Shown: in pieces, positions 1 to 7,329 of the stretch | Numbering within the stretch: the first letter of the stretch is position 1 | Layout: each line of letters begins with the position of its first letter | Origin: Candidatus Saccharimonadales bacterium | GTDB taxonomy: Bacteria; Patescibacteriota; Saccharimonadia; Saccharimonadales; UBA4665 | Reading direction: 5' to 3' | Assembly: GCA_050730835.1 (NCBI GenBank) | Contig: JBOHNS010000003.1 | Coordinates: 1-59,035, forward strand | Length of the DNA: 59,035 nucleotides | Translations under genes and position numbers: made by a program | The notes under the pieces: generated by a model | What the model was told of the DNA's origin: nothing | What the model saw: the letters and a program-made list of their open reading frames with translations, nothing else | Database searches by the model: none

Positions 1-121
1 AATAGGCCCTTCGACTTCGCTCAAGGTCATTCGCTTCGGCGCATAACTCTGTTACTACTTAAAGTTTTTGCTAAGTCGAATGGTTTACCATGAGTAAGGC
101 AGATTTATCTGCAGAATCGAA

Positions 122-312
122 TGGTGCGGGTGGCGGGAGTCGAACCCGCGTTTTGGCCTTGCCCGTACTCCGCAGTTGCTGGTGCGAGATACCAGAGTCG
201 AACTGGCGTCTCTTGCTTGGGAAGCAAACATACTGCCGCTGTACTAATCTCGCTCTTTGGCAGCTACGTAGGATGTTGGAAGGCCACATAATAGCCGTTA
301 TACTACACCCGC
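122..312 (-). tRNA. tRNA-Trp(CCA)-like gene interrupted after anticodon-loop nt 37 by a 116-nt insert (exon 1 = 312..276, exon 2 = 159..122)
   Basis: Minus strand 312..276 = GCGGGTGTAGTATAACGGCTATTATGTGGCCTTCCAA and 159..122 = AGGCCAAAACGCGGGTTCGACTCCCGCCACCCGCACCA. Joined, they give a 75-nt cloverleaf: acceptor GCGGGTG/CACCCGC, D-loop with GG, anticodon stem TGGCC/GGCCA, loop TTCCAAA, T-arm GCGGG-TTCGACT-CCCGC, encoded CCA. Neither half folds alone. Confidence 0.6.
180..253 (-). tRNA. tRNA-Gly(CCC), lying entirely inside the insert of the split tRNA above
   Basis: Minus strand GCGAGATTAGTACAGCGGCAGTATGTTTGCTTCCCAAGCAAGAGACGCCAGTTCGACTCTGGTATCTCGCACCA: 7-bp acceptor GCGAGAT/ATCTCGC, anticodon stem TTTGC/GCAAG, loop TTCCCAA, T-arm GCCAG-TTCGACT-CTGGT, encoded CCA. 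Confidence 0.9.
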
Positions 313-343
313 GCCGCTTCTGGTTTTAGCCAAAAGCCATTTT

Positions 344-362
344 CCATTGACCATTGACCATT
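344..362. repeat. (CCATTGA)n heptamer tandem repeat, about 2.7 units
   Basis: ccattga ccattga ccatt read directly, about 30 nt upstream of the split tRNA 5' end. The same unit recurs at 17420 and 18746. Confidence 0.85.
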
Positions 363-486
363 TATGGCCGGCTACGCCGATATTTAATATTCAAAAGCTT
401 TTACTAATAAAAGCTTTTGGCCAAAAATTGTTACAAGTTTTTAAGCCAGTCGCCAATGGCTTTTAGCTTATTAAAAAGCTAAAAGC

Positions 487-562
487 TGGAGCCACCTAGC
501 GGGGTTGAACCGCTGACCTTCGCGTTACGAATGCGATGCTCTACCAACTGAGCTAAGGTGGC
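487..562 (-). tRNA. tRNA-Thr(CGT)
   Basis: Minus strand GCCACCTTAGCTCAGTTGGTAGAGCATCGCATTCGTAACGCGAAGGTCAGCGGTTCAACCCCGCTAGGTGGCTCCA: acceptor GCCACCT/AGGTGGC, D-arm GCTC/GAGC, loop TTCGTAA, T-arm AGCGG/CCGCT, CCA encoded. Confidence 0.9.
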
Positions 563-652
563 GATCAATGCCAACTCTGGCATTATAGCAAACGTCTCTT
601 GAACATTATCCGTTAATTAGGCTAATATATATTCAAGAATTATTAAGCAAGT

Positions 653-1081
653 TTGGAGAAACCAGAGATACTAAAAGATTTCAAAAAATTTATCCTGCGT
701 GGCAACGTGGTCGATCTAGCTGTGGCCGTCGTTATCGGCGCGGCGTTTGGCAAAATAATCACGGCGCTGGTCAGCGATTTCATTACGCCGCTAATCGCTT
801 CCATTTACTCCAGCTCCAGCTTCGCCAAAGATTATTTCACTTTTAACGGCAGCAAATTTATGTATGGCGATTTCGTTAACGCGATTATAACTTTTGTGAT
901 TATAGCAGCTGTGATATTTTTCCTAATAATCCAGCCAATTAATAAATTACACGCCCGCGCCGAGCGTCGCAAAACGCCGCTAGAACCAACTGACCGTGCT
1001 TGCCCAGAATGCTTAAGTCTTGTCCCCAAAGCCGCCAGCCGCTGCGCCTTCTGCACCGCCAAAATCAAGCCTCAAAGCTAA
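653..1081 (+). CDS. mscL: Large-conductance mechanosensitive channel MscL with a C-terminal CxxC...CxxC zinc-ribbon tail
   Basis: N-terminus FKKFILRGNVVDLAVAVVIGAAFGKII..., two TM segments typical of MscL. C-terminus CPECLSLVPKAASRCAFCTAKI. TTG start. Confidence 0.85.
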   Translation: MEKPEILKDFKKFILRGNVVDLAVAVVIGAAFGKIITALVSDFITPLIASIYSSSSFAKDYFTFNGSKFMYGDFVNAIITFVIIAAVIFFLIIQPINKLHARAERRKTPLEPTDRACPECLSLVPKAASRCAFCTAKIKPQS

Positions 1082-1183
1082 ATAAACTTTTGCTTGAACG
1101 ATTTTGAAAGCCTGGCGGCCGACTTTAAACAGCTCGTCAATAATTTTTTTTGAGCGGCAAGCCATTAGCTCAGCTTGCTTAAA

Positions 1184-1780
1184 CTACCCTGCCGCTTTTT
1201 GTTTAATAAATCCGGCAAGCCGAAAACTGCCGAAGCTTAGCGCATAAAAAATGCTAAAGCTGTGCCCGGCGCTCGGCAACAAACCTTTATCTGCGCCATC
1301 GATTATGGTATCTTTGGGCGGTACGACGCCATCGGCCAGCGGTCGAAAAGATTTTATGCGTCGGCGCTCGGCCGCCGGCAGTTTGCCGAGGCTGGCCGGC
1401 AGCATGGCTAGCGATTGTTCAAAAGCCGGGTTTTGCTCAAATCTAGCCCTGGCAATAGTTTGCGGATTGTGTATTTTACCGCAAATCAAAACCACTTTGT
1501 CGACGGCCGCGCTGCGTGCCACAAAAGCATTAATGGCGGCGCTAGCGCCAGCGCTCGCGCCAATCAACGAAACGCGCTCGCCCCGTCCGGCGCATTCGTC
1601 TATCTGCGCAATTATTTTGTCTAATTTCGGCCGAAACGCTTGCTTATCAGCCCAGCCAATATAATGATAATCAACCTTAAGCTTATAAACGCGCCAAAAA
1701 TTTATTAACCTAGTCTGCACCTGCCGAAAATCATCATCCCCGAGCCCCGGCAAATATATAACGCGCCGATAGTGTTTCAT
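1184..1780 (-). CDS. Alpha/beta-fold hydrolase (esterase/lipase-like)
   Basis: 198-aa ORF with nucleophile-elbow motif GASAG (LIGASAGASAA). Confidence 0.55.
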   Translation of the reverse strand: MKHYRRVIYLPGLGDDDFRQVQTRLINFWRVYKLKVDYHYIGWADKQAFRPKLDKIIAQIDECAGRGERVSLIGASAGASAAINAFVARSAAVDKVVLICGKIHNPQTIARARFEQNPAFEQSLAMLPASLGKLPAAERRRIKSFRPLADGVVPPKDTIIDGADKGLLPSAGHSFSIFYALSFGSFRLAGFIKQKAAG

Positions 1781-1891
1781 AATCTTTTTCTAAGCATACC
1801 AGAATATCCGCTTATGTTTGGCGATAGCCGTCCGATTATACAATATTCTCCAATGACGCTTCAGATTTAGCAGACTTATTAACAAGATTGA

Positions 1892-1916
1892 ACGGTTTGG
1901 CGGGCTCGACCGGATT
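1892..1916. repeat. Distal att repeat (partial tRNA-Asp 3' end copy)
   Basis: Identical to 7075..7099. Flanks differ on both sides. Confidence 0.8.
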
Positions 1917-2255
1917 AGCGGGCTTCGCCCTTTATCCGCTCGCCTTTCTCGAAGCTAGCTTCTGCGAGAGGCTCGCTCCACGAATCGGCACCCCTTCGGG
2001 TTATGCCGATTCAAATCATGAGCGAAGCTCATCAAAAGAATAAGACCCATACCTTTGGCATGAGTCTTATTCTTTGGCGGGACATAGAGTCCGATTTCCG
2101 AACAGCTACACTAACCGCCTAATCTACAAAAATCTTTTTGCAGGCTATAACACCCAAACGCCCCCCTGCCGTGGTGGCTGTCGCAGGTACCATCAAACAT
2201 ATATAATATATAGCGAAGCGTAGGTATGTGAGCACAGGTTCACGGAGCAACAAAT

Positions 2256-2615
2256 ATGAAAACCAAAGATTTAACACCGCGTCAAAATGCCTATATGCAG
2301 GCTTATGTTAGCCCTGATAGCCCTAGCTTTGGCAACTCCTACCAAAGTGCTAGGACTGCCGGTTATAGAGACCAGACGGCTAGAAACCTTATGCACCTTA
2401 ATCCTGAATGGTTATCGGATAATATCGGACAAATAGTAGCTATTCAACCAGATGAGCTGATTACTGAACTAGCAACGATTATAAAAGACGGCTCAGAGCC
2501 AACAATTATCCGGCTTCGTGCTATAGAACTTAACCTAAAAGCATACGGGATGTTGTCTCAGCGGCAAGAAGCGGCTCAAACAGCCGTAACACTCAATATA
2601 GATTTAACCAGTTAA
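2256..2615 (+). CDS. Terminase small-subunit-like HTH protein
   Basis: LTPRQNAYMQAYVSPDSPSFGNSYQSARTAGYRDQTARNLMHL resembles the N-terminal HTH of phage TerS (Terminase_2-like) proteins. Recognition by eye only. Confidence 0.45.
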   Translation: MKTKDLTPRQNAYMQAYVSPDSPSFGNSYQSARTAGYRDQTARNLMHLNPEWLSDNIGQIVAIQPDELITELATIIKDGSEPTIIRLRAIELNLKAYGMLSQRQEAAQTAVTLNIDLTS

Positions 2616-3373
2616 TAGCCATACTGATGAAGTTCGGCAGCAATACATTGCGACATCGCACTAGAGCTACCAGCGCCAGCATTACCCAATATTACGCCGC
2701 AGTTTTGTTGAGCAACAGCAAGTGCTTGACTATATGTGTACCCAGAACCGCCACTTGACGATGTTTTCGTACCCCTTAAAATTACCTCGTCGGTTGCAGG
2801 GTAAACAACAGATGTAGTTGGTGGGCCATTATTGGGTGTAGTACAAGTTTCCTTCTCGCCTTTTAATCCGTACGTTTTAGTGTAGTTCTGACCTATGTAA
2901 CTTGTTGGGTCATCTTCGTAGATAGTGTGATAAGGGATAGAGATATAGGTGCACGAGGGGAAGAACGGCGGTTTGTACGCCGTGCCAGGAGGAGACGTGC
3001 TATGTCCGCTTGCCACCGTACTTAACTGAGCGGGCTCGGCCGATTTAACTGGTTGGGTTTCTGAAGTTGATTTTTTGACTGTATTAGGTGGTGGTTTGTC
3101 GCAACTATGCTGGCCGTAGACCTCGATACACAGCCCATCATTGTTATTGCCTGCCTGAACACTTAGGCTGCTTCTGCCGGCTACTTTTGTGTCTAGCGAC
3201 CCTGAATGTACCATTTTGCTATGACTAACCTGCCAAGCAGTGGCCGCGCCGCCACAGGCGAGCACTATGAACAGACCCACGCCACCAAGCAACAATTTAC
3301 GCTTAGAGAGTCTTAACATTTTCCCTGTTAGGCTTTCCTTAAAACTACGCAACCACATAATTTTTCTCATCAT
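2612..3373 (-). CDS. Membrane-anchored protein with a G5-like domain
   Basis: N-terminal TM (LLLGGVGLFIVLACGGAA). The segment IPYHTIYEDDPTSYIGQNYTKTYGLKGEKE...VILRGTK resembles a G5 domain. Confidence 0.45.
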   Translation of the reverse strand: MMRKIMWLRSFKESLTGKMLRLSKRKLLLGGVGLFIVLACGGAATAWQVSHSKMVHSGSLDTKVAGRSSLSVQAGNNNDGLCIEVYGQHSCDKPPPNTVKKSTSETQPVKSAEPAQLSTVASGHSTSPPGTAYKPPFFPSCTYISIPYHTIYEDDPTSYIGQNYTKTYGLKGEKETCTTPNNGPPTTSVVYPATDEVILRGTKTSSSGGSGYTYSQALAVAQQNCGVILGNAGAGSSSAMSQCIAAELHQYGY

Positions 3374-3831
3374 AATTTAGACATCATTTCTTTGAAGCCA
3401 GTGTAGTCCTTATAAAGTTCGGCGTCGCTAGTTTCGGATACGGCGGCTAGGTTATCTCTAACTCGCCCCGCCTCTGGCGTATCAGTCCAGCCGCTATCCA
3501 GCAGCTCTGTCAGTTGCTCGTTTTTATACTCTAGCAAGGCGATGGTATAGGCCCTAATAACAGGGATAGTGTACAGCTTACCTGCTGTCGAAGGTATTTT
3601 GCTAGCAGGCACATTTTCCTTATTCCTTCCAGTGGTGTCCTCGCCTAGCAAGTAATCCACGGATAAAACACATAGGTTCTTAAACGCATCGTCATCTTTT
3701 GGATAGGCTATAGTCTTCTCGATTAGCGGACGGTACTCCCCTTCAACCATATTCTTATACAACATCACCTTTAGCTGTAGGTATGCATTATTAAACTTCT
3801 GGATTGACCGCTGCTTTGAAAATAAGCCCAT
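3370..3831 (-). CDS. Hypothetical protein (element-borne)
   Basis: 153-aa ORF overlapping the downstream gene by 4 nt. No recognisable motif. Confidence 0.45.
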   Translation of the reverse strand: MGLFSKQRSIQKFNNAYLQLKVMLYKNMVEGEYRPLIEKTIAYPKDDDAFKNLCVLSVDYLLGEDTTGRNKENVPASKIPSTAGKLYTIPVIRAYTIALLEYKNEQLTELLDSGWTDTPEAGRVRDNLAAVSETSDAELYKDYTGFKEMMSKL

Positions 3832-4078
3832 TAGGTACCTCTATTGTTGGTGCGGCAATCAAAAAGCCTGCCGCTAAACTGATGGCTCGCGCCACCCACA
3901 CCGGTTTCCCGATATGACCATATACAACAGTAGGCCTAACGACAGGCTGTTTGTTGTATATGGATTTGGGGCGACCGTGCCGCCGCAGAGCGACGGTTTA
4001 GGCCTAAGTGGCGTACCACTTATCAGAGATTATAAGTCAATTGGAATGAAATAGTACATAGCTTGGTATTATTAAGGT

Positions 4079-4681
4079 ATGCCTGAAAATGAACATAGTC
4101 GGAGACGTTTTAAGTTAAAGGCCGGTGAATACGACTGGTATAAAGAGCAGGTTGCTAGCGACAAAGAGTTTGTTGCTAAGCTGAAAAGACTGGCGACACG
4201 CCGTGCTCGTAGTTATCCACAACACAACTCGCCGTTAATTCGACGACTTATTGCTGGTCTAGCCGATGATTACGACCTTAGCACCGATGACATTGATGAA
4301 CTTCTTGTGACGGTAATTCAAGGAGCTTCTAGGCAGAGCCGTAAGGGTAGTATTGGCTTCGACTTGCTCACCAGACAAGCTACCGTCACGTATAACATTG
4401 ATGATTGTAGCGACAAAGAAGCCGAGGAGCTTTTCAGGAAATCCCTTGCGGCTCGCCGTCGTGACTTTGGCGACCCGAAAGCCCCTAGGCGTAGGCTGCC
4501 ACAAGAGGCAGAGCTACTTTACGCAATACACCGAGCGGTCAAGCGCGGCCTTAAGCGCCAAGCTATATTTGATTTGTATGCTGCCAGTGAACTCACTGGC
4601 TCCAAACCCAATTTAGTACAATTCAGCACACCCGTAGACCTTATGAATTACTATTACCGACACACAGAGGAAGTCACGTAG
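4079..4681 (+). CDS. Hypothetical protein (element-borne)
   Basis: 200-aa ORF, basic and helical in composition. No family recognised. Confidence 0.45.
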   Translation: MPENEHSRRRFKLKAGEYDWYKEQVASDKEFVAKLKRLATRRARSYPQHNSPLIRRLIAGLADDYDLSTDDIDELLVTVIQGASRQSRKGSIGFDLLTRQATVTYNIDDCSDKEAEELFRKSLAARRRDFGDPKAPRRRLPQEAELLYAIHRAVKRGLKRQAIFDLYAASELTGSKPNLVQFSTPVDLMNYYYRHTEEVT

Positions 4682-4742
4682 TTTAAACACCCCCCTTAAC
4701 TGTTACTCAAAGCTTGTCCATTTCTGTCGATACTAATGGGGT

Positions 4743-5243
4743 ATGAGTAATGACTTTAGTACAAATGGGGGCTGTTTAATGGGGAATGGCGATGAATTGG
4801 GCAATAGTCCAATGCCTAACCTTAAACCCTCCATTGAAGAAGTAGATACACTAGCAGATGAACTAGCGGGCGAGTTCGACAACCCAGATTACCGTACCTG
4901 GTACTGCAAGGTTATTTACGAGTTCGGCGTTGACCGCGTGAATGGCTGGCGAAAGCGCGCCCGCAGCGGCGACTTTCCAGGAAGACTATTCGGCTTTTAC
5001 GTACGTGAAGCCCGTGAGCGCAAAGGCGGCAATCGTAGTGTTCACGACAACGCTAGCCAGCCCACCGCTAACGGGAAAGACACCGTTTACCCTGTACGCG
5101 GCGACGAAACCAGCGAAGAGCTGCTAGCTAATATGCAGAAAACTCTTGGCGAGAAACCAGCAAGCCAGGAAGCCAGCAAGGAAAGCCAAGCTAATAATGT
5201 TCGGCGAGTATTTGGTGATTATTTAGAGGAAATCGACGCGTGA
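4743..5243 (+). CDS. Hypothetical protein (element-borne)
   Basis: 166-aa ORF. No family recognised. Confidence 0.45.
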   Translation: MSNDFSTNGGCLMGNGDELGNSPMPNLKPSIEEVDTLADELAGEFDNPDYRTWYCKVIYEFGVDRVNGWRKRARSGDFPGRLFGFYVREARERKGGNRSVHDNASQPTANGKDTVYPVRGDETSEELLANMQKTLGEKPASQEASKESQANNVRRVFGDYLEEIDA

Positions 5244-5425
5244 GTATCACAGCTGCCGATATAGACTATGAGCAGCTCCGCCGGATACTCGAGCGTGAGC
5301 TTGACCGCCCTGTCAGTATCGACGAGGCCACCGGTATAGGCAAGCACCTGGTAAACGTTTACGAAATCTTGCTTTATAACGGGGGTGAATGTGATAAAAT
5401 AGAAATGGACACAACTAATCGCTAG
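5240..5425 (+). CDS. Small hypothetical protein (element-borne)
   Basis: 61-aa ORF whose start overlaps the upstream stop by 4 nt (translational coupling pattern). Confidence 0.35.
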   Translation: MSITAADIDYEQLRRILERELDRPVSIDEATGIGKHLVNVYEILLYNGGECDKIEMDTTNR

Positions 5426-5526
5426 GACTACCATTGCTTCTTAATGGGGGCAGTTCGTACAGCTTCTAGCGAGGTTGTGTCCGCGAGCTGTCCCCATTAA
5501 GTTGATAGCTCTGAAAGGAGAAAGCA

Positions 5527-7122
5527 ATGGTAGAAGAAGCTGTAAGATGCGTGGTGTTAGCTCGTGTATCTAGCCGCGCACAAGAGGAAGAGGGCTACTC
5601 ACTAGACGCCCAGGAGCGGTTAGCAAACGAGTACTGCCCTAAGAAGCAACTCAAGGTTGCTAAAACATTCAGGATAGCGGAAACAGCGTCAAAAGCAACG
5701 GAGCGGCGGGTATTTAATGAAATGATGAAGTACCTAACAGCTAACCGGATTAAGCAGCTAGTCGTCGAGAAAGCAGACCGCTTAACTCGCTCATTCAAAG
5801 ATATGGTAATGATTGACGACTGGCTAGAAGCTGACGATAGTCGCCACGTACATCTAATCAAAGATAGCTTAGTAATGTATAAGCACTCGCGCTCTCAAGA
5901 CAAGCTGAACTGGGGTGTTAAGGTACTGTTTGCCAAGAACTACACTGATAATCTTCGAGAAGAAGTTTACAAAGGCCGAATGGAAAAGCTAGCGGACGGC
6001 TGGCTACCAGGTAAACCACCATACGGCTATAAGACTATCGGCGAAAAGAAGCATAAAATACACATACCCGACCCTGAAAAAGTACCGCTGCTAATTAAGT
6101 TGTTCGAAAGCTACCTAAACCCTAGTCATTCTTTGACTACCATTACTAGGTACGCAGGTGATATCGGTATACGCACTAGCAAAGGCCGCCCGTACTCGCG
6201 CAGCACTCTAGCCGAAAATATACTGGCTAACCCATTCTACACCGGTAAAAATCGCTGGCAAGGTATAGATTATGACGGTAAGCAAGAGCTATTTTTAGAT
6301 GAAGACTTATGGAGCGCCGTGCAAGCTAAGATGCACCGAAAAACGCCACCGAAATACCAAAAGCACGACCCCGACTTGCGTGGAATTATCCAATGCGAAG
6401 ACTGTGGTGGCACAATTTCCTGGGAGTTTCAAAAAGGCACCTGGTATGGCCACTGCAATCGCTACAAGGGTTGTCCGTCAAAGAAGTATGCTACACAGAA
6501 GATTATCGAAGAGCAGCTGTTTAAGCACTTCGAAAAGCTGTTGTGCCCATCGCCTGAGATTGCCGAGTGGATTATCGAAGCGCTTAAAGCCAAGCACCAA
6601 AATGATATGTACGATTACAGCGCTAGCGTCGAGCAGCTACGCAGCAATCACGACAGCCTGAAGCGCAGTCTGGATATCCTATACGAAGACAGGTTGAGCG
6701 AGCGTATATCCGTTGAAAGGTACGACCAGTTGAGTAAAGAAAAAGTTCAGCAGCAGAAAGAGCTTGAGACGCAAATTACCGGCCTGGCCGACCGCAGCCG
6801 CAAGCAGCTTCACAGAGGCGTTGACGTACTCGAAAAATCACAGCAAGCAGCGGTAGTGTATGCCACCAAATCGCCTGCCGAGAAACGCATATTACTGAGT
6901 GAGCTATTTACCAGTCTCAAACTAGACGGCACTGCATTACACGTTACTTACAACCCATATACAGAGGCGATTTCGAAACGGGTCGAAAGGCACCGCAAGG
7001 TCGTTAGCAACTTTCGAACTAAAGAAAACACCCCCAATAACGGGGGTGATACCGAGCTTGTCACAGCTCTTCGTACGGTTTGGCGGGCTCGACCGGATTT
7101 GAACCGGCGATCTCCTCCGTGA
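5527..7122 (+). CDS. Large serine recombinase (integrase)
   Basis: Resolvase catalytic N-terminus VVLARVSSRAQEEEGYSLDAQ, recombinase domain, zinc ribbon CEDCGG...HCNRYKGC, C-terminal coiled coil. RBS AAAGGAG precedes the ATG. The last 14 codons are encoded by the att core and tRNA-Asp sequence. Confidence 0.9.
   Translation: MVEEAVRCVVLARVSSRAQEEEGYSLDAQERLANEYCPKKQLKVAKTFRIAETASKATERRVFNEMMKYLTANRIKQLVVEKADRLTRSFKDMVMIDDWLEADDSRHVHLIKDSLVMYKHSRSQDKLNWGVKVLFAKNYTDNLREEVYKGRMEKLADGWLPGKPPYGYKTIGEKKHKIHIPDPEKVPLLIKLFESYLNPSHSLTTITRYAGDIGIRTSKGRPYSRSTLAENILANPFYTGKNRWQGIDYDGKQELFLDEDLWSAVQAKMHRKTPPKYQKHDPDLRGIIQCEDCGGTISWEFQKGTWYGHCNRYKGCPSKKYATQKIIEEQLFKHFEKLLCPSPEIAEWIIEALKAKHQNDMYDYSASVEQLRSNHDSLKRSLDILYEDRLSERISVERYDQLSKEKVQQQKELETQITGLADRSRKQLHRGVDVLEKSQQAAVVYATKSPAEKRILLSELFTSLKLDGTALHVTYNPYTEAISKRVERHRKVVSNFRTKENTPNNGGDTELVTALRTVWRARPDLNRRSPP
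7075..7099. repeat. tRNA-proximal att repeat
   Basis: Identical to 1892..1916. Confidence 0.8.
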
Positions 7123-7156
7123 CAGGGAGGCGTGATAACCACTTCACTACGAGCCC
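7081..7156 (-). tRNA. tRNA-Asp(GTC)
   Basis: Minus strand GGGCTCGTAGTGAAGTGGTTATCACGCCTCCCTGTCACGGAGGAGATCGCCGGTTCAAATCCGGTCGAGCCCGCCA: acceptor GGGCTCG/CGAGCCC, anticodon stem CCTCC/GGAGG, loop CTGTCAC. Confidence 0.9.
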
Positions 7157-7329
7157 TCGTCCTTAGCGTACGCGCCAATCTTGTTTTGCCGCTCTAACGC
7201 CAAAAGCTTCGACCTGGCGCTACGGTCGTACTCTCAAAACTCCATTCAGTCGCTATGCTCCTTGAATTGGAGTTTTGTATAGCCATAATCTAGACAGCTC
7301 CATGTTTTATTTCAAGCTTGACCCAGAAA

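Follow-up and report, generated by a model that had tools for sequence, protein, structure and literature searches.

At one end of a 59,035-nt stretch of Saccharibacterial DNA (henceforth the window), a complete tRNA-Gly(CCC) gene lies within the anticodon loop of a second tRNA gene on the same (minus) strand. Sequence comparisons indicate that the outer gene is itself a tRNA-Gly(CCC), split between C35 and C36 rather than a tRNA-Trp. The same architecture was recovered at seven further loci, invariably with insertion at TTCC^CAA, and two of these are triple nests. We consider that the insert is probably a non-autonomous, site-specific mobile cassette that is moved by a putative trans-acting factor and replaces the very gene it destroys, the outer halves being relics that are never rejoined.

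The 5' part of the outer tRNA-Gly(CCC) occupies 278..312(-) (positions 1-35, ending in ...CCTTCC) and its 3' part 122..161(-) (positions 36-76, starting with CAAGGCC and ending in ACCA). Between them is found a 5' flank at 254..277(-) (AACATCCTACGTAGCTGCCAAAGA, with the conserved core CATCCTNCGTAG), which pairs with a 3' flank at 162..179(-) (GCAACTGCGGAGTACGGG, core CGGAGNNCRGG) whose 3' end is invariably GG; the two enclose the inner or cargo tRNA-Gly(CCC) at 180..253(-), a 74-nt gene with an encoded CCA. This inner gene is called by both ARAGORN and Rfam (RF00005, 61.2 bits), in agreement with a preliminary description of the locus, and the pairing of its flanks into a stalk, proposed there as well, was confirmed. 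The upstream neighbor, a tRNA-Thr(CGT) at 487..562(-) called by ARAGORN, is conserved and anchors a syntenic Thr-Gly-glycosyltransferase block. On the uncut region ARAGORN reports the inner tRNA alone even with its intron options; hence, in-silico excision is needed to see the outer tRNA. That the outer cloverleaf is not a chance product is indicated by random joins over a 116-nt gap elsewhere in the window, 0 of 20,000 of which yield a tRNA. The Logan assembly of run SRR27067709, which reaches 5 kb past the window, is identical to it across the 7,137 nt they have in common; together with the recurrence of the architecture at seven other loci from other assemblies, this disposes of the assembly error that had been entertained earlier. 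Promoter and terminator scans over 1..700 returned nothing informative, and BLAST of the first 8 kb against phages returned matches to tRNAs only.

The identity of the outer gene depends on where its halves are joined. The preliminary description had joined 312..276 to 159..122, at the canonical 37/38 intron position, and read the product as a tRNA-Trp(CCA) of archaeal type. ARAGORN indeed calls a 75-nt tRNA-Trp(CCA) for this join, so that a cloverleaf had been rightly perceived, with wrong boundaries and a wrong identity. Joined as 312..278 plus 161..122 (loop TTCC+CAA), the halves are called by ARAGORN as a 75-nt tRNA-Gly(CCC), which is identical at 72 of 75 positions to the uninterrupted tRNA-Gly(CCC) that a relative (L011) has in the corresponding syntenic place. 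Similarly, the L060 shell agrees with the L004 gene at 73 of 75 positions and the L082 shell with the ordinary gene of L029 at all 75. The usual tRNA-Gly(CCC) at this locus starts with GCGGGT(A/G)T, as does the outer 5' segment in the window. Applied to homologous nests, the 37/38 join gives CCT with C37 (L060) or CCT (L082), with CCA appearing in the window only, whereas the conserved anticodon CCC is obtained solely from the junction between 35 and 36. As only this junction gives both the conserved CCC and the match to L011, the insert lies at 277..162(-), inside the outer anticodon: its length of 116 nt stands as first described, with shifted boundaries, and the Gly-type loop TTCCCAA, which had been mentioned as a fallback, proves to be the right one. 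The CCA reading is an accident of the window copy, whose insert begins with AA. The combination G1-C72/A73, earlier taken for the archaeal tRNA-Trp identity set, is found in every Saccharibacteria tRNA-Gly(CCC) at these loci, and so is normal for tRNA-Gly here. With a bacterial host and no bulge-helix-bulge besides, a split tRNA-Trp(CCA) with an archaeal-style 37/38 intron holding a tRNA-Gly merits practically no credence, despite the ARAGORN call for the halves joined at 276/159.

The host is a CPR bacterium and not an archaeon: among the products of the window are FtsK, RNase J, PNPase, EF-P, SSB and the components of a complete type IV pilus, and the glycosyltransferase just past the window start belongs, by NCBI annotation, to a Candidatus Saccharimonadales MAG and has thousands of homologs in Saccharibacteria. 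Using that glycosyltransferase as an anchor, we fetched 80 species-representative Saccharibacteria loci. Most of them show the order tRNA-Thr(CGT), tRNA-Gly(CCC), about 400 bp and the glycosyltransferase, and the Thr-Gly distance in these 80 loci is mostly 2-30 nt where there is no insert. In L017, L035 and L058 the tRNA-Gly(CCC) is absent from its place after tRNA-Thr. It may be dispensable in some lineages, a possibility that weakens the argument for a needed replacement copy.

The cassette family, which is drawn from eight loci only, comprises ten shells, i.e. interrupted outer genes: one each in the window, L060, L074, L026, L038 and L082, and two each in L083 and L085. In the set of 80, an intact shell surrounds a different inner tRNA-Gly(CCC) in L060, and the shells of L074, L026 and L038 are decayed or partial. 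A scan of metagenomes with a pattern built on the conserved flanks gave four matches, of which three are true, namely the double nest L082 and the triple nests L083 and L085 (tRNA within tRNA within tRNA); the fourth, L084, is a chance match. A loosened version of the flank pattern gave 100 matches in viral contigs, all of them by chance and none containing a tRNA. In a blind screen, in which each of the 258 tRNAs at these loci was excised with 0-33 nt of flank on each side, shells emerged round tRNA-Gly(CCC) genes only. Wherever the junction is preserved it consists of TTCC, the insert and CAA, with TTAC or TTCT preceding the insert in two decayed shells, and all ten shells are consistent with a single insertion point where the junction survives.

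Across the family the insert measures 109-120 bp. Its 5' flank spans 19-25 nt and contains the core (T/A)NCATCCTNCGTAG; a 74-nt cargo tRNA-Gly(CCC) with encoded CCA follows, and the 3' flank, of 14-27 nt, ends in CT(A/G)CGGAGN(A/G)C(A/G)GG. The flank cores form imperfect inverted repeats, their 14-nt ends pairing at 10-13 of 14 positions. The flank motifs are confined to nested tRNA-Gly sites in the 738 kb made up of the window and the loci, and have a single site in the 59-kb window.

The inserts fall into two lineages. In lineage A, the flanks TACATCCTTCGTAG ... CTACGGAGTAC(G/A)GG accompany a cargo with GCG(A/G)GATT and a ...TGC anticodon stem; in lineage B, the flanks TCCATCCTCCGTAG ... CTGCGGAGGACGGG accompany a cargo with GCGAGTAT and a ...CC stem. 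The window copy is a hybrid of the two. In both lineages the flank type tracks the type of the cargo and not that of the shell, i.e. the flanks move with the cargo. For instance, the insert of L060 shares 88% identity with the inner insert of L083, as against 61% for the respective shells; for L082 and the outer insert of L083 the figures are 88% and 72%; and, the other way round, the window and L060 have inserts that are 72% and shells that are 91% identical. A-type inserts are found inside both ordinary and B-type tRNAs, and B-type inserts inside both ordinary and A-type tRNAs; hence, at least four kinds of target have been entered at the identical position. All that the targets have in common at the junction is CTTCC/CAAG, which is too short for homologous recombination. 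On these sequence grounds, the mismatch between inserts and shells is evidence for repeated, site-specific insertion. The layers alternate as A-B-A and B-A-B in the two triple nests, an order that arises in about 1 of 4 cases by chance and is not significant. We also considered whether the differing anticodon stem of the cargo (GC..GC versus CC..GG) confers self-immunity, and rejected this: the anticodon arm of the B-type cargo is the same as that of the L060 shell, which a B insert has entered, and L038 is apparently a same-type nest. Between the tRNA-Thr and the first Gly-type tRNA, L085 and L026 have a common spacer, ...TTCGCCAAG(A/G)CTTCGTATGGCAAG..., which looks like a decayed A-type 5' flank; it would imply an older layer of invasion whose shell is gone, and a fourth level in L085. 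At L057 (3475-3600), from which the tRNA-Gly(CCC) is gone, the remaining stretch TCGAGGACGGGCGCAG resembles a B-type 3' flank.

The interrupted genes and their cargo differ in fate. After in-silico excision, five of nine tabulated shells (window, L060, L082, the outermost of L083 and the middle one of L085) fold as tRNA-Gly(CCC), and three are fully intact. The L074 shell has a mutated anticodon and a disrupted T-loop; the middle shell of L083 shows C35 changed to T along with stem mismatches; the outermost shell of L085 has lost its 3' half and that of L026 its 5' half. On direct reading of the locus, the tenth shell, in L038, is decayed throughout. Thus, five of the ten shells are decayed or truncated, and the innermost tRNA is intact at every locus. 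The preliminary description had looked to the orthologous loci for a verdict on the outer gene, and its fallback that this gene was killed by insertion is borne out by them: relatives are nested too, with shells ranging from intact to decayed. In L026 and L038 the flanks have eroded together with the shells round an intact cargo, which suggests that the flanks are not needed for making the cargo tRNA. Cargo-type tRNAs without a shell are scattered over the glycosyltransferase tree (a rough neighbor-joining tree) and include those of the closest relatives of the window, L186 (75% identity) and L187 (72%); the inner tRNA of the window and the un-nested tRNA-Gly(CCC) of L186 belong to one sequence type. 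In several genomes a cargo-type tRNA is found 3-13 nt past tRNA-Thr with no scar. If such genes descend from cassettes, a very clean deletion of the shell would be required. Judged from these sequences, the pattern of decay fits an insertion that inactivates and replaces the host gene, the remains of which then erode.

In the scenario we favor, the resident Saccharibacterium tRNA-Gly(CCC) would have been split at C35/C36 by a 116-bp cassette made up of the 5' flank, a tRNA-Gly(CCC) and the pairing 3' flank. The cassette would enter tRNA-Gly(CCC) genes at TTCC^CAA, in the loop of their CCTTCCCAAGG hairpin, and could likewise enter the cargo tRNA of an earlier cassette, giving rise to nests up to three deep. 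Such an entry would be without cost to the cell because a working copy of the interrupted gene comes along. The inner tRNA would be matured normally, by RNase P at its 5' end and by 3' trimming to the encoded CCA, while the outer halves would stay unjoined and decay over time. We infer insertion at the level of DNA, a factor acting in trans and no splicing.

As to the chemistry, there is neither duplication nor loss of target sequence: each of the seven loop bases is present once, with TTCC preceding the insert and CAA following it. Nor do the two junctions have a common core: agreement with the empty site ends at CCTTCC on the left and resumes at CAAGG on the right, with zero overlapping bases. 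DDE transposition was rejected because the target duplication is absent, and conservative site-specific recombination by an integrase or serine recombinase because the junctions lack a common core. Exact insertion without duplication, loss or common core limits the chemistry to single-strand (HUH-type) transposition or to intron-like homing or reverse splicing. The former is known from IS200/IS605 and IS91, and both routes leave such exact, duplication-free junctions as their signature. The cassette fits neither family cleanly: it has no separate end hairpins and no ribozyme. No transposase (including Y1/HUH), homing endonuclease or reverse transcriptase was identified in the window. A large serine recombinase is encoded 5 kb away, but it belongs to what is probably a separate island and is absent beside the other nested loci, and is therefore not linked to the cassette here. 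A split tRNA of the Nanoarchaeum type was also rejected: both halves are on one strand with 116 nt between them, the complementary flanks go with the cargo and there is no bulge-helix-bulge.

The intact shells could be read against the cassette, in that they might mean that the outer gene is still used; an intact shell together with an intact cargo is just what a freshly inserted, spliced intron would look like. The insert would then be a true bacterial tRNA intron, cut from the RNA with religation of the outer tRNA-Gly(CCC), such that each transcript supplies two tRNA-Gly(CCC) and spread occurs by reverse splicing. Such an intron could be released by a staggered, RNase III-like cut of the long helix of anticodon stem and flanks, and then sealed by an RNA ligase that acts on 3'-OH and 5'-P ends. 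The fold of the region provides some support for this: in an alternative pairing register, the anticodon stem runs nearly continuously into the flanks in all seven homologs, with 95.5% of cells paired. From the outside inwards, the modeled helix consists of the anticodon stem followed by U32-A38 and U33-A37; a bulged C36, with C34 and C35 paired with the last two G of the insert; a 2-nt bulge and the first three bases of the insert paired with GNA of the 3' flank; and a 4-nt bulge before a 7-bp stalk. The pairing of the terminal GG with C34/C35 is present in the minimum-free-energy fold and in all but one cell per pair over the seven homologs, and among the pairs that GNA forms, one varies, with A-U in five sequences and C-G in the other two. 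Across the helix the two junctions are offset by 2 bp, as in an RNase III cut, though the agreement is one of geometry only; the 3'-OH and 5'-P ends from such a cut could be sealed by an Rnl-type ligase, and exact junctions without duplication are what splicing or reverse splicing gives. Nevertheless, we regard this modeled helix as weak evidence for function because it was drawn from the very sequences on which it was tested and its sole covarying pair mirrors the two lineages. Moreover, direct reading of the alignment revealed no bulge-helix-bulge, which consists of two 3-nt bulges containing the splice sites, 4 bp apart, at either candidate junction; the preliminary description had been unable to draw a clean one either. 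At the 35/36 junction, the 4-bp helix would have to form between C30 C31 U32 U33 and N-A-C-R, always with a C.C mismatch and a broken anticodon stem; at 37/38, UUCC would face C-R-G-G with at best three pairs, two of them wobbles, and no distal helix. The earlier view that the insert is not a group I intron also holds, for neither a group I intron nor another ribozyme is matched by Rfam in 1..700 at the gathering score or even at E<=10, and the catalytic core P3-P9 takes at least about 200 nt. EndA, RtcB and RNA ligase are absent among the ORFs of the 59-kb window plus about 5 kb. Finally, decay always strikes the shell and never the cargo, although splicing would make both redundant, and with its host gene restored the cargo need not equal the target tRNA. 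Hence, we regard splicing of the insert as unlikely. Quite unlikely, too, is its extended form, in which these would be the first bacterial tRNA introns outside group I, excised and religated by host enzymes, with the tRNA-precursor RNA reverse-splicing into the anticodon loops of other tRNA-Gly(CCC) in the manner of a protein-dependent mobile intron.

Another alternative dispenses with dedicated mobility: a single, ancient, accidental insertion might later have been spread and reshuffled by homologous recombination of incoming DNA. Saccharibacteria have competence-type pili, the window includes genes for type IV pili, the flanks are of common origin, and the combinations of inserts and shells would be accounted for by exchange inside the tRNA exons or in the adjoining genes. 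The patchy distribution of tRNA types on the glycosyltransferase tree is also what allele replacement would give. However, the shells are only 60-70% identical to any possible recombination partner shell, and the common stretch at the junction, CTTCC / CAAG, is far too short for RecA-type exchange. Furthermore, one and the same phosphodiester bond was the point of entry in at least four target types, and an insert inside the cargo of another insert needs a new insertion event. These points make recombination alone very unlikely.

In the literature searched (on tRNA introns in CPR and on nested tRNA genes), a tRNA gene within a tRNA gene is not described for CPR or other bacteria, and no paper in it links a tRNA splicing endonuclease to Patescibacteria. 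The cassette nonetheless has partial parallels in several known systems. The protein-spliced tRNA introns of archaea and eukaryotes resemble it in that they are inserted in the anticodon loop, may contain a second functional RNA, as in the archaeal tRNA-Trp intron with its C/D box guide RNA, and occur as related inserts in different tRNA genes; transposing tRNA introns of Thermoproteales are on record (Fujishima et al., 2010, as cited in PMC10714607). In contrast to these introns, which sit at 37/38, the cassette is found in a bacterial host, between 35 and 36 and with no bulge-helix-bulge; it carries a complete tRNA, of the isoacceptor that it interrupts, and the interrupted genes decay, which would not be expected of genes that are spliced. 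Group I introns that occupy the anticodon loops of bacterial tRNA-Leu, fMet, Ile and Arg (PMC3984707) share with it the exact, duplication-free insertion in the anticodon loop of a bacterial tRNA gene by an element able to home; however, 74 of the 116 nt of the cassette are tRNA, leaving no room for a core, and it has no homing endonuclease gene. Islands and prophages that integrate into tRNA genes, bringing a copy of the displaced 3' part, likewise complement the function they disrupt. They are kilobase-scale, encode their own integrase, repeat a core at both ends and replace part of the tRNA, whereas the 109-120 bp cassette carries a whole tRNA and lacks a repeated core. MITEs, palindromes derived from IS200/IS605 and REPINs are also noncoding, of about 100 bp and endowed with complementary ends, and IS200/IS605 elements insert after a fixed tetranucleotide with no target duplication. 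Unlike the many copies of such elements, the cassette apparently occurs once per genome and carries a functional gene; compared with MITEs, it has terminal inverted repeats but no target duplication, and compared with IS200/IS605, its ends pair with each other and no separate end hairpins are seen in the folds. The Dada DNA transposons of fish, which occupy fixed positions inside tRNA and snRNA genes (PMC8869645), are akin to it in their sequence-specific insertion into small RNA genes, but are eukaryotic, autonomous, kilobase-sized and aimed at a multicopy target, in place of which the cassette brings a replacement. The nesting of element in element recalls twintrons and nested insertion sequences, and the patchily distributed intervening sequences of bacterial and CPR rRNA are similarly hairpin inserts in the loops of a structural RNA. 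In the cassette, however, no ribozyme or transposase is seen, and a nest arises as each insert recreates its target.

If the cassette interpretation is correct, these loci harbor a minimal selfish element of an undescribed kind, of about 115 bp, protein-free and with one target per genome, which would do no harm, as it supplies a substitute for the gene that it splits. This would account for the patchy occurrence of tRNA-Gly(CCC) types across Saccharibacteria and provide a way for a core translation gene to be replaced horizontally in very small genomes. It would also point to a putative enzyme able to recognize the anticodon loop of a single tRNA gene (or of its transcript) and to insert DNA there with no base gained or lost. 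The nests would constitute an ordered record of successive invasions, which is rare for mobile DNA. Were the insert spliced instead, protein-dependent tRNA splicing would extend to Bacteria. On the practical side, the annotation of tRNAs in CPR genomes can miss or mislabel genes, as with the false tRNA-Trp that an intron-aware scan gives here.

Several further elements were observed around these tRNA genes. In the window, tRNA-Asp (7081-7156) and tRNA-Thr (487-562) are about 6.5 kb apart, as against 100-300 nt in many relatives. The intervening region, at about 600-7160, is probably an integrated element or its remnant: the above-mentioned large serine recombinase/integrase (5527..7122; PHROG integrase, E=2e-62) overlaps tRNA-Asp with its 3' end on the opposite strand, and the region also holds a terminase-small-subunit-like fragment (2256..2615), several ORFs belonging to no family and MscL. 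The same probable island contains a full-length LOOT RNA at 3881-4004 (-) (Rfam RF03000, 73.2 bits against a gathering score of 46.4); the LOOT motif, placed here in a Saccharimonadales genome, is not otherwise known outside unclassified marine metagenome sequence.

The Thr-Gly spacers, too, hold elements of other kinds. At L069 (3385-3580), a tRNA-Gly(CCC) is interrupted in its T-loop by about 100 nt that contain no tRNA, and a replacement tRNA-Gly(CCC) was not found nearby; a palindrome in this insert, ...CTTCACTTTAAAACTTGTTTTCAAAGTAGAAG..., resembles those in the Thr-Gly spacers of L030 and L040. In L008 (3250-3480) and L016 (3370-3520), a direct repeat of 19-22 nt of the 3' end of tRNA-Thr(CGT) brackets 110-150 nt before the tRNA-Gly, an arrangement reminiscent of an attL/attR scar left in tRNA-Thr by an integrase-type insertion. 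The spacer of the window (313-486) is unusually long, at 174 nt, and rich in AAAAGCTTTT / GGCCAAAAGC palindromic repeats; similar GGCCAAAAGC...GCTTTTGGCC motifs are found in the spacers of L033, L040, L068 and L080. These palindromes may represent a second family of small palindromic elements. Lastly, in the Thr-Gly spacer or just past tRNA-Thr of L027, L055, L081, L059 and L070, a hairpin CCCCA...GAATCCTCTC...TGGGG, or a shorter variant of it, adjoins the tRNA genes.
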